In this document: positions 1-4,856 of the stretch, piece after piece
Numbering within the stretch: the stretch's first letter is position 1
Layout: every line of letters begins with the position of its first letter
Source of the DNA: a virus
Taxonomy: Duplodnaviria; Heunggongvirae; Uroviricota; Caudoviricetes
Length of the DNA: 8,488 nt
Strand: one strand, 5' to 3'
Virus record (IMG/VR): IMGVR_UViG_2531839449_000010
Location: 1-8,488 of that record
Position numbers and translations under genes: made by a program
Notes under the pieces: generated by a model
Databases searched by the model: none
What the model was told of the DNA's origin: nothing
What the model saw: the letters and a program-made list of their open reading frames with translations, nothing else

Positions 1-395
1 AGCTGGTCAGGTCGTTCTGCCACGAACTGACGGTTTACGCGGTCGCCTGCGGCAACGGCTTTCCGGCTGATGGTCGTACGGACCTTTTTACCCCGGAGAA
101 CACCGGCAAGTCCCATAACCGCCATGAGACGTGCCACTGTACATCTGGCCACCCTGATTCCTTCCCGTAACAACTGACGCCAGACTTTACGCACACCGTA
201 CACCTGATGATTTTCATCGTATACGCGCTGTATCTCTCTCTTCAGCCAGTCGTCGTGCTGCGCACGGGCACTGCGTTTATCCGGATGATGTCGCTGTTGC
301 TGACAATGGTAATACGTTGACGGGGCAATATGCAGTTCGCTGCATACCGGTCCGACCCCGTACTGCTCACGCAGCTTATCCAGCAGTGGCATCAT
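1..395 (-). CDS. IS3-family transposase OrfB (DDE integrase-type), N-terminal part only; normally expressed as an OrfAB fusion by -1 frameshift
   Basis: Hand translation of the rc from 395 gives [132 protein letters not shown], open to the window edge. It is in the -1 frame relative to orfA and is absent from the ORF track because no stop lies in the window. Confidence 0.8.
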
Positions 396-718
396 TTTTT
401 CCAGAGGCGGTCGAACTCCGCCTTCGCAAAATAAGCGGAAGCCTGGCGAAGGATATCGTTACTGCGGCGCAGTTCACGATTTTCACGTTCCAGCTCTTTC
501 AGACGCTGACGTTCAGCGCTGGTGAGCCCACCATCACCGCCCCCGGTATCCCGCTCATGCTGGCGAACCCAGACACGCAGAGTCTCCGGCGTACAGCCAA
601 TCTTTGGGGCAATGGAGCAAATTGCCGCCCACTGTGAGTCATATTCATCCTGACTTTCCAGAACCATACGAATCGCCCGCTGACGGACTTCGGGGGAAAA
701 ACGAGTATTTTTAGTCAT
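392..718 (-). CDS. IS3-family transposase OrfA (helix-turn-helix DNA-binding subunit)
   Basis: 108-aa [33 protein letters not shown]..., identical to the right-hand copy at 7942..8268. C-terminal leucine-rich heptad region ([20 protein letters not shown]) is typical of IS3 OrfA. AGG at 731..733, 9 nt upstream of the ATG, is a possible Shine-Dalgarno. Confidence 0.9.
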
Positions 719-723
719 CCTGT

Positions 724-1326
724 TTACCTCTTTCTCAGGGAGTTTAGTCTCCAGGATTTCCGGGGCGGTTCAACCATCTCAATGGATGGTGTTCCGCATT
801 GGTTACCCCAGACATCAAATCCATGCGAGGTGTGACGGGCGAACAGTTCTATCCGGGGAACATCGCCAAGAAGTTGCACAAGTTTTTCTCGCGCCATATC
901 CGGCTTGCGGGAGTGATCAAGGCGCGGTGCAGTGAATGACTGGATTATTCCGGCGTTAATGCGTTCAGGCAGATTTCCTTTCACTGCAAAAAGGCAGTCT
1001 TCGCTGTTAGCGCGAGTGGTGCTACCCATACCCATGACCAGCTTGTCGGTCTGTCTTTTCCCGCATTTGTTCCAGGTTAATCCTTTCATCGTCACCAGAC
1101 GAAAGCCCCACGCTTCTACAACCTTCAATGCTTCAAGTGGTTGTGTAGGCACCCACCACATAGCCAACAGGCAATTATCGGCTGCCAGTTCCCATACCGG
1201 GAGGCGGCAGATATCCAGAAGACTCATGACCGGATATTTAAAACTTGCACCGCGTTGACCATCGGTTGCTTTGTCTCGGAATGTCCAGGGGGGATCTGCG
1301 TAAATGAGAGTGTATTTTTTCGTCAT
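724..1326 (-). CDS. MT-A70-family DNA N6-adenine methyltransferase (phage orphan methylase); 3' end interrupted by the IS, so residues 186-200 are IS-encoded
   Basis: N-terminal motif LIYADPPW (catalytic DPPW). The ATG at 1324..1326 overlaps the stop of the upstream gene (ATGA). The reading frame crosses the IS boundary at 772/773; the tail [15 protein letters not shown] is translated from IS terminal sequence. Confidence 0.8.
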
Positions 1327-1526
1327 AGCGCGTTTTCAAACTCATCAATGTAAAGTGCAACAAGTGCAACGCATCGTCTGAAATCGGCTGCGTCATGTGG
1401 AGCACCGAAGCTATGACCATAGATATTCTTTTTCAGTCCACATGCGATTGAGGCAAGAGTTGCGCTACTGATGCCAACATCGCCAGTCGATTGCCATTTC
1501 AAAACCTTCATAGCCAAATCTGACAT
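1323..1526 (-). CDS. hypothetical small prophage protein (67 aa)
   Basis: ATG at 1524..1526 preceded by GGAGA at a 7-nt spacing. Stop overlaps the methyltransferase start (ATGA), suggesting translational coupling. Confidence 0.55.
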   Translation of the reverse strand: MSDLAMKVLKWQSTGDVGISSATLASIACGLKKNIYGHSFGAPHDAADFRRCVALVALYIDEFENAL

Positions 1527-1539
1527 TTCTTGTCTCCAT

Positions 1540-1563
1540 AAAACAAAACCCGCCGTAGCGAGT
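1540..1563 (-). terminator. candidate intrinsic terminator (distal of a tandem pair)
   Basis: Minus-strand RNA ACUCGC-UACG-GCGGGU forms a 6-bp stem (one G.U) with a tetraloop, followed by UUUGUUUU. Lies between the stop at 1645 and the next start at 1526. Confidence 0.4.
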
Positions 1564-1566
1564 TCA

Positions 1567-1594
1567 GATAAAAGAAATCCCCGCGAGTGCGAGG
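1567..1594 (-). terminator. candidate intrinsic terminator (proximal of a tandem pair)
   Basis: Minus-strand RNA CCUCGC-ACUC-GCGGGG forms a 6-bp stem (one G.U) with a tetraloop, followed by AUUUCUUUUAUC. Same stem design as the hairpin at 1540..1563. Confidence 0.4.
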
Positions 1595-1644
1595 ATTGTT
1601 ATTCATTGCCGATATTCACCTTTATCGCGAACACCTTTACCGGT

Positions 1645-1887
1645 TTATCTCCTTTGCATGGCGCGTAATTTTTTCAGATGGTTCTCCTGCTCTGTTTCAG
1701 CCAGAATTTGTCGGTATTCCTGGTGATCGATCCGTTCAAACAGTTCATTAAAATCGTTTATTTTTACCGACTGTGTTCGCCCATCCATTCTTCTGTACAA
1801 CACAGTGTTGTTTATGCAGCGAAGAATTTTTATCGGGTAGCCGGCGCTATCGGTGTATATCTGACCACGTTGAATCAGAGCGAACAT
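1645..1887 (-). CDS. hypothetical small prophage protein (80 aa from the ATG at 1887; the track ORF extends to a TTG at 1941)
   Basis: Open frame 1645..1941. The TTG at 1941 has AGGAG directly abutting it (spacing too short), so I prefer the internal ATG at 1885..1887 (MFALIQRGQIY...). The start is uncertain. Confidence 0.4.
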   Translation of the reverse strand: MFALIQRGQIYTDSAGYPIKILRCINNTVLYRRMDGRTQSVKINDFNELFERIDHQEYRQILAETEQENHLKKLRAMQRR

Positions 1888-1961
1888 TCCTTTATCCCCA
1901 GCGGAAAAGCGAATACAGAATAAATGCCACCGCGATTGCAACTCCTACAGCGGTGAATGCT

Positions 1962-2312
1962 TCAGGCCAATTCATCATTCACTCCCTGCGGCGGTTCTGG
2001 TAGCAGCATCCAGTACAAGGCGTTCCCTAACCACGATAAAGTGCCGTCGCTCAACTCCACGTATTCCTCTTGTACCTGTCCTGCCATATACTCACCGTGC
2101 TTTGAATAAATTAAAATCCAATCATCTTGAGCGGGCATTCGCTCACTACAGCTTATCCAACCACCCGGACTTACCGGAGAGTTGCCAGTCTTACGCATGG
2201 CAATCTCCACGATTTCAACCATATCTCCTGGCAGAATTTTACAAAGCTGGCCAAAGCGCCTCTGCTGCCTGGCATACTCGAGGATGTGCTCCAGTTTGGT
2301 TCGATTAATCAT
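1962..2312 (-). CDS. DUF551-like prophage protein (115 aa)
   Basis: C-terminal segment GWISCSERMPAQDDWILIY...GEYMAG...YWMLLPEPP resembles the DUF551 pattern (WIS..ERLP...W.PLPEPP) as I recall it. ATG at 2310..2312 overlaps the upstream stop (ATGA). Confidence 0.5.
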   Translation of the reverse strand: MINRTKLEHILEYARQQRRFGQLCKILPGDMVEIVEIAMRKTGNSPVSPGGWISCSERMPAQDDWILIYSKHGEYMAGQVQEEYVELSDGTLSWLGNALYWMLLPEPPQGVNDELA

Positions 2313-2764
2313 GATTTATCTCCCTTAAGCATGGCAGCGCGGCAGGCATCCTCTACGCCCTTAACTGCATCTGCGCAGTAGTTATAGCGATTGCATTCCA
2401 CTAACTTCTGCTTGAGGTTTTCAATTGCTTGCGCGACATCAGCCTGTATTACCGGAACTGGCGGAGTGGTATATAGTTTTCGGCATTTGTTTATCCAACC
2501 GGCATGGTCAGGCGTGTCTGTAAAGCGCAAATCGTTTTCGTAGCCCTCACGACTACGTTCTTTCCATTCCGTCCACGGAACACCGCTATTCCAAGTGGGG
2601 CGAGTGCAGGACTGATACAGAACAGGTTCAGCTTCCAGCGCTGCCAGAGCAATCCGTGCCAGTTCTTCCGCTTCTTCTGCTGGCAGTACAACGTTGCTAC
2701 CAGGTCCGTATGTTTCGCGCCACTGCTTGATTGTCAGCAGTCGCTCTTTGGTAATAGTGGTCAT
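2309..2764 (-). CDS. hypothetical prophage early-region protein (151 aa)
   Basis: ATG at 2762..2764 preceded by GAGGA at a 7-nt spacing and overlapping the upstream stop (ATGA). No family recognised. Confidence 0.55.
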   Translation of the reverse strand: MTTITKERLLTIKQWRETYGPGSNVVLPAEEAEELARIALAALEAEPVLYQSCTRPTWNSGVPWTEWKERSREGYENDLRFTDTPDHAGWINKCRKLYTTPPVPVIQADVAQAIENLKQKLVECNRYNYCADAVKGVEDACRAAMLKGDKS

Positions 2765-3319: not shown

Positions 3320-3860
3320 CCCCTTTGTTGCTAATGCTTACAGCCTGGCAAGCCTCTTTGAGTACCCAGTCAACAGCGTCTTTCCATGCTCCGGTTTCAA
3401 CAGATGGATTCTCACGCTTTACCTGTTCATAAAAGCGCACTGCTTTAATCAGTTCTTCCGGTACTACTGGCGATGCCTGTTTAGCTTCTAAATCAGCAAT
3501 TCTGTCAACCACGGCATCTACTGCATCTGAAAAACTGAAACAGTTACTCCATTCCGGCCTGTCCCCGGTTGCTGCAAAATACATATCAGCTAAAGCAGAC
3601 TCAGCATGGTCACGCTCATTAATGAGTTGCTCTTCGCTTTTCTCCTGTTCGGCTATGCGCTTACTTCCATCCGCGATTACTCCCTCGTAATACTCACGCT
3701 GCTCGTTGAGTTTTGATTTTGCTGCTTCCAACTCATCCAGTAGCGCCAGCACAACCTGAGGTGTGGCTTTCATACGAAATGCCAGCAATTTTTGAGGCGT
3801 TGCTACTGTTTCAATTGCTACTGCCGCCTCACGCAGTGCCTGGTAATTAATTTCGCTCAC
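3312..3860 (-). CDS. Ead/Ea22-like prophage protein (182 aa, GTG start)
   Basis: N-terminus (V/M)SEINYQALREAA... is the Ead/Ea22-like family signature as I recall it, followed by a coiled-coil-like charged heptad region. AAGGAGG lies 6 nt upstream of the GTG at 3858..3860, which overlaps the upstream stop (GTGA). Confidence 0.6.
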   Translation of the reverse strand: MSEINYQALREAAVAIETVATPQKLLAFRMKATPQVVLALLDELEAAKSKLNEQREYYEGVIADGSKRIAEQEKSEEQLINERDHAESALADMYFAATGDRPEWSNCFSFSDAVDAVVDRIADLEAKQASPVVPEELIKAVRFYEQVKRENPSVETGAWKDAVDWVLKEACQAVSISNKGGE

Positions 3861-4621
3861 TGGTTGCCTCCTTTGCGAAGCTCAGCGGCGAAAGATGTTG
3901 CTGCGGAAGCGATAATTGCATGCCGGTATTCACCATCAGAAAATAAAGAATCTCCCTTAAGTGCATTGACGATACTCTGATGATTTTTTGCCAGCATCTC
4001 CACGCCCTGCGCCCGTACTTCAGCCAGGCATTTGCGAAACTCGGAAACGTACTGTTCGACGCTCATTCCCCAGCTAAGTGGACATTCATTGAATGTTTCG
4101 CCTTCGTGCTCTTCATCAGGTAGCTCTTTGGTAAAGAACTCACGCTCAATGGCGTGGAGTGTGTCAGCAAAACGACGTAAGTTACTCAAACCTACCGTAA
4201 TGGAGAATTCAGGAGCATCACATCCGACGCCCATCTGCTGATAAACTGCTGTTTTGAAGGCCTTCAACTCCGCATTCTCCGCCGCCAGAGCCGAAAACTT
4301 CTCGTGTGCCAACTTAACAGCCGAATCAGCCTGCTTAATTGACTCAATCGCTTTCTGTTGGTCTTCGGCCAGCTTCGCTAAATTAGCCTCCAGTTCGGCC
4401 ATGCGTTCGTTTAATGCATCTCGTTCATCCAGTAGTGACAGCACGGTTTCTGGCCCGGCCATAATTTTAAAGGCGTGAATCGCATCAATATCAATACCAA
4501 GCTCCTTGAGCTTCTTTTCGCTTAATAAATCATCATCACCTGGTAATATTGACAGATGTGTCATCGCTGTAATTGCGCGTTCCGACACGTCACGCAATAC
4601 CTGATAGTCAATTTTGCTCAC
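3857..4621 (-). CDS. Ead/Ea22-like prophage protein, second tandem paralog (254 aa from the GTG at 4621)
   Basis: The track ORF 3857..4969 (370 aa) is over-extended. The in-frame GTG at 4619..4621 (VSKIDYQVLRDVSERA...) has the same AAGGAGGCAACCA-GTG initiation context as the paralog at 3860. The upstream stretch 4622..4969 is accounted for by two other coupled genes. Confidence 0.55.
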   Translation of the reverse strand: MSKIDYQVLRDVSERAITAMTHLSILPGDDDLLSEKKLKELGIDIDAIHAFKIMAGPETVLSLLDERDALNERMAELEANLAKLAEDQQKAIESIKQADSAVKLAHEKFSALAAENAELKAFKTAVYQQMGVGCDAPEFSITVGLSNLRRFADTLHAIEREFFTKELPDEEHEGETFNECPLSWGMSVEQYVSEFRKCLAEVRAQGVEMLAKNHQSIVNALKGDSLFSDGEYRHAIIASAATSFAAELRKGGNQ

Positions 4622-4856
4622 TGGTTGCCTCCTTTGTGGATCTGCGCTGCGATGCACGAAAAAAAGATTCCCGCGTATGACAGTTAAGAGCTGGTGCGAA
4701 AGCCGCGTTAAGAACGGCAGCATCACAGCCGTCATCGATATAGAGCGCAATTTTTTTCTCCAGGCGCGCTTTGGCTTCCTGCAACTGCATACCCCGGCAC
4801 GTACGCGGGATATACTCAGCAATTTGAGCGATAGATTTTTCGTTCTGTTTAAACAT
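4608..4856 (-). CDS. hypothetical small prophage protein (82 aa)
   Basis: ATG at 4854..4856 overlaps the upstream stop by 8 nt (ATGTTTAA). Its own stop lies 14 nt inside the next gene. No family recognised. Confidence 0.5.
   Translation of the reverse strand: MFKQNEKSIAQIAEYIPRTCRGMQLQEAKARLEKKIALYIDDGCDAAVLNAAFAPALNCHTRESFFRASQRRSTKEATSEQN

Follow-up and report, generated by a model that had tools for sequence, protein, structure and literature searches.

The question raised by this locus is whether a prophage MT-A70 methyltransferase whose reading frame runs out of its own gene and into an IS629 element can still act as the intact enzyme does. The window, by which we mean the whole stretch of 8,488 bp that was analysed, is the complete draft contig ADUQ01000079.1 (assembly GCA_000188835.2), and both of its ends lie inside copies of one insertion sequence, IS629. 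The prophage is lambdoid and Stx-phage-like, and the methyltransferase gene is placed in its early-left operon, with exo/recT on one side and xis/int on the other. To our knowledge, the intact protein, gp5, is the catalytic subunit of the only prophage-encoded rRNA methyltransferase reported so far, and it modulates Stx-prophage induction and STEC virulence. The features discussed below are collected in Table 1.

Table 1 Positions of the features of the methyltransferase locus and of the two IS629 copies in the window
Feature	Position	Strand	Description
Chimeric MT-A70 ORF	724..1326	-	200 aa: native residues 1-185, 15 IS-coded residues and TAA
Native methyltransferase part	773..1326	-	Codons 1-184 and first two bases of codon 185; gp5 / M.EcoPA8orf6770P allele
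IS629-derived ORF end	724..772	-	Third base of codon 185, 15 codons (771..727, residues 186-200) and TAA (726..724)
DPPW catalytic motif	1285..1296	-	Residues 11-14, GAT CCC CCC TGG, intact, read from sequence
WGNQ motif	799..810	-	Residues 173-176, last strongly conserved block of the core, intact
67-aa hybrid ORF	1323..1526	-	Overlaps the methyltransferase start (ATGA); in place of the PNB-2 (gp6) specificity-subunit gene
Two terminator-like hairpins	1546..1597	-	Just upstream of the 67-aa ORF; consensus matches only
Partial IS629 (IS1203-type, IS3 family)	1..772	-	Left end at 772; orfA and start of orfB; cut by the contig end
IS629 orfA	392..718	-	108 aa, HTH_Tnp_1 match
Second IS629 copy	7888..8488	+	Inverted with respect to the first, left end inward; cut by the contig end
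Stranded 3' gene end	7862..7887	-	Last 7 codons and TAA, separated by the second IS629 from the rest of a hypothetical early-left gene (195 aa) that lies downstream of exo

The IS629 junction and its prophage setting

Read on the minus strand, the junction runs ...CCATTGAGATGGT and then directly TGAACCGCCCCGGAAATCCTGGAGACTAAACTCCCTGAGAAAGAGGTAA, with the left end of IS629 starting at TGAACC. Alignment with the intact 627-bp gene of O157:H7 strain TR01 gives identity through ...GAGATGGTT and divergence beyond, which places the passage of the methyltransferase frame into the IS exactly at 772/773, where the original prediction had put it. Codon 185, which follows ATT GAG ATG, is GTT (774..772), and its third base is already the first base of the IS; past it the left-end sequence of the element continues as GAACCGCCCCGGAAATCC... 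The last 15 codons had been ascribed to the IS terminal repeat, and all 15 are indeed IS codons, but the 46 translated IS bases extend past the roughly 25-bp repeat into the IS leader. The stop at 724 was also located correctly, 5 nt upstream of the ATG of IS629 orfA (718..716, read from sequence), and the description of it as fortuitous is apt since an open run of 15 codons is unremarkable, with (61/64)^15 about 0.49. The IS-coded tail (727-771) has six Arg/Lys and a single Glu, which makes it strongly basic, in contrast to the mixed charge of the native tail; one might speculate that it adds non-specific affinity for nucleic acid.

The whole element could be examined in a sister genome (GCA_000619605.1, contig JHHM01000003.1, locus L005) that is 99.98% identical to the window across all 8,488 bases. 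Its complete IS629 copies are 1310 bp long and 100% identical to the IS629 of Stx2a phage PA2, and the copy in the methyltransferase gene lies at 10555..11864. The length, the TG...CA ends and the imperfect terminal inverted repeats are those of IS629. In L005, orfB encodes 295 aa with an rve match and follows orfA in the frameshift arrangement; a programmed frameshift is annotated by PGAP in the identical PA2 copy. The two copies in the window bracket 7,115 bp with both left ends inward, 7888..8488 being a 601-nt inverted repeat of 172..772, and the copy in the methyltransferase gene has the orientation of the operon.

At the second copy, the match of the window to the corresponding intact gene of a relative (L003, 12007..12594) ends 26 nt within that gene; the junction sequences of the sister genome agree, and there the copy has a clean 3-bp target duplication, GGC. 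The right flank of the copy in the methyltransferase gene falls outside the window. L005 shows that no native base was lost there, with a left flank of ...GATGGT (10552-10557) and a right flank of CAT-TCCGGG (11862-11870) where GGT-TCCGGG would be expected. The CAT triplet could have been carried from an earlier donor site via an IS3-type circle junction, or could be a sequencing error. An IS-mediated inversion or deletion between the inverted copies was considered and ruled out, because in the sister genome collinearity with intact prophages runs through both copies and the second of them still has its GGC duplication.

In intact relatives the gene order is int - xis - (DUF4222) - DUF1627 - DUF1382 - MT-A70 - ... 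- PAPS-reductase-like - YfdQ - ... - exo - recT - gam, with the genes from xis to gam all on one strand. The sister genome keeps this order at the methyltransferase region and adjoins int and the csc sucrose genes; close prophage relatives with the same integrase type adjoin tRNA-Arg. The sole substitution between the window and the sister genome is at 617 (G against A), within the left IS629 copy, and the same position is also the sole difference between the two IS arms of the window. Assembly of a multi-copy repeat into one consensus may have produced it. At about 4658-4665 the window has a run of A7 against A8 in the sister genome. Through this difference the ead/Ea22-like gene region changes frame and the ORF calls are altered; it could be either a true frameshift or a homopolymer error of the draft. 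In the same region a 63-nt direct repeat (3829-3891 and 4590-4652, 81% identical) spans the junctions of consecutive ead/Ea22-like genes, which suggests paralogous modules with conserved gene-start regions.

Catalytic core and lost C-terminus

The 554 native nucleotides have no mismatch to gp5 of Stx2a phage PA8 (M.EcoPA8orf6770P, 208 aa), and residues 1-185 are identical. The MT-A70 domain (Pfam PF05063) is matched by residues 5-176 over the profile positions 1-172 of 172, scoring 81.2 bits against a cut-off of 23.9. That the N-terminal catalytic motif had survived was borne out by the presence of DPPW, which is nearly invariant across 98 homologs. In the WGNQ block W173 and G174 are invariant and N175 is found in 104/108 of the complete-core homologs among the 120 best, and all of the motifs known as catalytic or SAM-binding in MT-A70 enzymes lie before residue 177. 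A Foldseek search with an AlphaFold2 model of the native protein returned METTL3 (E = 2.9e-13, probability 1.0) and also Tetrahymena MTA1 and METTL4; MTA1 was matched by phmmer at E = 7e-13. The catalytic subunits of METTL3-METTL14 and of Tetrahymena MTA1c share the fold and DPPW with the phage protein, and likewise need a partner subunit for specific activity, whereas they are eukaryotic, multi-domain proteins of about 20-25% identity with different partners. The phage enzyme is not M.EcoGIX, which is plasmid-borne; the relevant names are M.EcoPA8orf6770P and M.EcoGV.

The DPPW codons include a run of six C (1286-1291), and one database protein (P0002, 9 member sequences) is frameshifted exactly there, reading ...RRAPWTF... 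The run may be a slippage-prone site within the catalytic motif.

What has been removed from the protein is its C-terminus. The intact protein, WP_000163444.1 (208 aa), ends in ...IEMV-PGIVKFLEKTNERKNDVDKGITS, and alignment with intact homologs, as the original prediction had proposed, puts the loss in the chimera at 23 residues relative to this common allele. The native C-terminus had been described as missing, which is right for the protein; it had also been described as replaced, but in L005 the 3' remnant of the gene is found directly beyond the 1310-bp IS, and the gene end has thus been displaced rather than deleted. The remnant has an extra A (L005 11923-11926: GACAAAAGG as compared with GACAAAGG). 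Judged from this sequence, the immediate ancestor probably had the tail ...DVDKRHHQLN, a tail also present in P0002, and against this +A allele 25 residues would have been lost. Alleles of 628 bp, one base longer, of the uninterrupted gene occur in O111-type genomes, probably by the same extra-A change. The extra A also truncates the overlapping DUF1382 gene, called at 52 aa in the sister genome.

The conservation of the lost part was surveyed by aligning the 120 best homologs from the search and counting the 108 with a complete core. The insertion was to count as functionally neutral if intact homologs ended within a few residues of 185 and no conserved C-terminal segment was lost. This comparison did not refute the original prediction: all of the 108 extend past 185, the shortest by 4-6 residues, and none stops before residue 189. 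In the same set, the stretch beyond 185 measures 4 to 87 residues (median 13). Directly past the cut is a semi-conserved P-G-x-A (P186 in 85, G187 in 87 and A189 in 70 of the 108), of which the shortest tails still keep PG and in the place of which the chimera has E-P-P-R. Past residue 190 conservation is gone, and both the sequence and the length of the tail are highly variable across the 108.

The AlphaFold2 model of the native protein (98-sequence alignment, pTM 0.82) predicts a C-terminal hairpin with strands at 182-185 and 188-191 and the PG turn between them. The mean pLDDT is 88 at 181-190 and falls below 50 at 196-208, which is predicted to be disordered. In the model of the chimera the core is unchanged, again with a pTM of 0.82, and no strand is predicted past residue 173; the mean pLDDT is 74 at 181-190 and 51 at 191-200, values to be read with the limit that AlphaFold2 cannot measure destabilisation. 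The alignments and the models together show that the insertion spares the catalytic core and takes away the second strand of the predicted terminal hairpin, the P-G-x-A turn and a clade-specific tail predicted to be disordered.

The PNB-2 gene and related alleles

The function of the intact protein has been described by Gong, Chakraborty and Koudelka (NAR 2023, PMC10810198). Alone, gp5 (M.EcoPA8orf6770P) makes weak and non-specific use of SAM with DNA or RNA as substrate. Its preference for 16S rRNA, above all in 30S subunits, is seen when it is bound 1:1 to PNB-2, a protein of 143 aa (gp6) encoded by the gene immediately upstream. The methyltransferase increases spontaneous prophage induction and the killing of amoebae, and a DPPW-to-APPA mutant does not, complementation being abolished. 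These authors proposed that the last 27 aa of gp5 may mediate binding to PNB-2; isoforms outside STEC that lack the last 27 residues also lack PNB-2, and the tail was poorly modelled (PMC10810198). In the chimera, residues 1-185 of the holoenzyme subunit are kept without change, whereas the last 23 residues and the PNB-2 gene are missing; in place of a full-length subunit with its C-terminal 27 aa, 186-208 have been exchanged for the 15 IS-coded residues.

No adjacent, co-transcribed PNB-2 gene was found at the locus, which is the extent of that search. The 67-aa ORF that precedes the methyltransferase gene matches PHROGs 8038 and 1229, neither of which has an assigned function. Its match to PNB-2 is confined to the last 10 residues, and residues 1-56 are the N-terminus of a 114-aa phage protein (P0138). 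We therefore take this ORF to be a recombination hybrid that has replaced the PNB-2 gene, and the idea that it is a short PNB-2 homolog is ruled out, as it is an unrelated protein fused to the end of PNB-2. The mosaic junction within it lies about 30 nt upstream of the methyltransferase start. No sigma-70-like promoter for the pair of genes was found in 600..2400.

The same hybrid precedes the intact methyltransferase gene in TR01, and most of window 773..1600 is found in one piece, in the TR01-like form, in 74 complete genomes. Since the PNB-2 gene is absent, the locus cannot supply the rRNA-directing subunit, and this holds independently of the IS; the missing partner is no less important than the truncation. 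About 17% of STEC carriers have full-length gp5 but no PNB-2 next to it (PMC10810198). These carriers, together with the 74 genomes, mean that a PNB-2-independent role may exist, and such a role might survive the truncation.

The original prediction had also suggested GATC or other m6A methylation of DNA as an assay. This is outdated, because the identical protein with PNB-2 prefers 16S rRNA and because GATC methylation by the relative M.EcoGV is, in the account given in PMC10810198, seen only on overproduction without a partner. M.EcoGV, from E. coli O104:H4 (Fang et al. 2012, as cited in PMC10810198), is described there as highly similar to M.EcoPA8orf6770P and, unlike the chimera, is of full length; the copy of the gene in an O104:H4 genome (H130) has 98.6% DNA identity.

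The closest parallel is gp5::IS629 of Stx2a phage PA2 (PMC10810198), in which the gp5 gene is disrupted by IS629 at a different position. The gene is the same, with native parts identical to gp5 of PA8, and so are the inserted element and the kind of prophage, early-left next to int at argW. In PA2 the element follows nt 393 (codon 131), with a duplication of GAA, and splits the catalytic domain, whereas here it follows nt 554 (codon 185) and the domain is spared; PA2 retains PNB-2 upstream, and the present prophage has none at the locus. Short natural MT-A70 isoforms in other Enterobacterales (187-200 aa) likewise end early and lack a PNB-2 partner (PMC10810198), but they retain the P-G-x-A turn and no fewer than 4 residues past 185.

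Neither of the two IS junctions was found, in this arrangement, in 5,426 complete E. coli genomes or in 50,697 phage records. Decay of the gp5 methyltransferase gene is nevertheless common. Of 258 complete genomes that carry the gene with at least 95% identity, 50 have no copy contiguous over 80%. Besides the IS629 of PA2, decayed examples include the commensal G6/7, with IS150 near nt 200, and ERL04-3476, with a 5' transposase remnant, and many O157:H7 strains retain only nt 298-627. The event is an ordinary one: a fresh allele of a known type, the IS629 disruption of a Stx-phage gp5 methyltransferase.

Explanations for the allele and what it means

The explanation that we consider best, and on balance probable, is that no rRNA-directed activity comes from this locus, that at most a weakened stand-alone enzyme is made, and that the allele belongs to the decay of the prophage. 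IS629 would have transposed into codon 185/186 of a gp5-type MT-A70 gene to give the 200-aa chimera. We infer that the locus would be unable to form the rRNA-directed holoenzyme and that any activity would at best be of the weak, non-specific kind reported for gp5 by itself, which the broken hairpin has probably lowered still more. The allele would then be one step in the decay of a prophage that IS629 has entered at another site as well and in which, in the sister genome, the following gene is frameshifted.

A rather unlikely alternative is that a dispensable, fast-evolving tail has simply been swapped and that the chimera is as active as the native protein. The complete Pfam domain, with its model ending at residue 176, the intact DPPW and WGNQ and a core modelled at native-equal confidence would all fit with this, as would homolog tails that range from 4 to over 80 residues and are little conserved past 190, the predicted disorder of 196-208 and a natural 191-aa allele ending ...PGIVKQ. 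Against it, none of the 108 homologs ends before 189, P186 and G187 are kept in about 80% of them, and even the shortest tails have PG; the strand that is lost comes from a hairpin modelled at about 88 pLDDT and is missing from the model of the chimera, and the region is the one tied to PNB-2 binding by the authors of PMC10810198. There is very little chance that the junction is instead the product of misassembly, in which the end of a contig had collapsed into a repeated IS. The window is a draft contig with both ends within IS629, and the mismatch at 617 and the homopolymer difference at about 4658 with respect to the sister hint at draft quality. Yet the same chimeric protein (WP_000163443.1 / EZD69121.1) is found in two contigs, and only two, from independent assemblies, and one of these contigs, of 223 kb, has the same junction, spans the whole IS and runs on into the gene remnant; the recurrence in two assemblies shows that the junction is no artefact.

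The insertion might also act on the operon rather than on the enzyme, the IS629 copies breaking early-left transcription to DUF1382, DUF1627 and xis, or read-through from the methyltransferase gene driving the transposase. This we regard as improbable, and it is compatible with the loss of rRNA-directed activity and prophage decay that we favour. The genes from exo to xis share one strand, and the IS within the methyltransferase gene is oriented as they are; the overlapping start of DUF1382 comes 31 nt downstream of the insertion, and the chimeric stop is on the same strand as the orfA ATG just beyond it. Transcripts antiterminated by N may, however, read through the IS, and no promoter-like sites were found in 600..2400. 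An RNA structure at the junction that hides or exposes the ribosome-binding site of orfA was considered and rejected, as the fold is no better than that of shuffled sequence (z = -1.0), which also counts against the operon reading. It is a possibility that the chimeric ORF, in ending on the Shine-Dalgarno region of orfA, couples early transcription of the prophage to the synthesis of IS629 transposase.

The 627-bp gene has been hit repeatedly, by IS629 at nt 393 (PA2) and at nt 554 (here) and by IS150 near nt 200 (G6/7), and with 5' deletions and frameshifts the lesions amount to about 19% of carriers. That these insertions reflect selection at the level of the host against a prophage methyltransferase that raises induction is a doubtful reading, though if it were true an allele affected only in its tail would single out the last 23 residues as indispensable for function in vivo.

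Returning to the explanation in terms of lost rRNA-directed activity and prophage decay, a small lesson concerns annotation, as RefSeq names the chimera WP_000163443.1 plainly as 'MT-A70 family methyltransferase'. A natural allele with a complete core and without the C-terminal 23 residues is, moreover, a ready reagent for the proposed docking of PNB-2 by the tail. If the prophage is still inducible, the loss of gp5 would, by analogy with PA2, lower its spontaneous induction.
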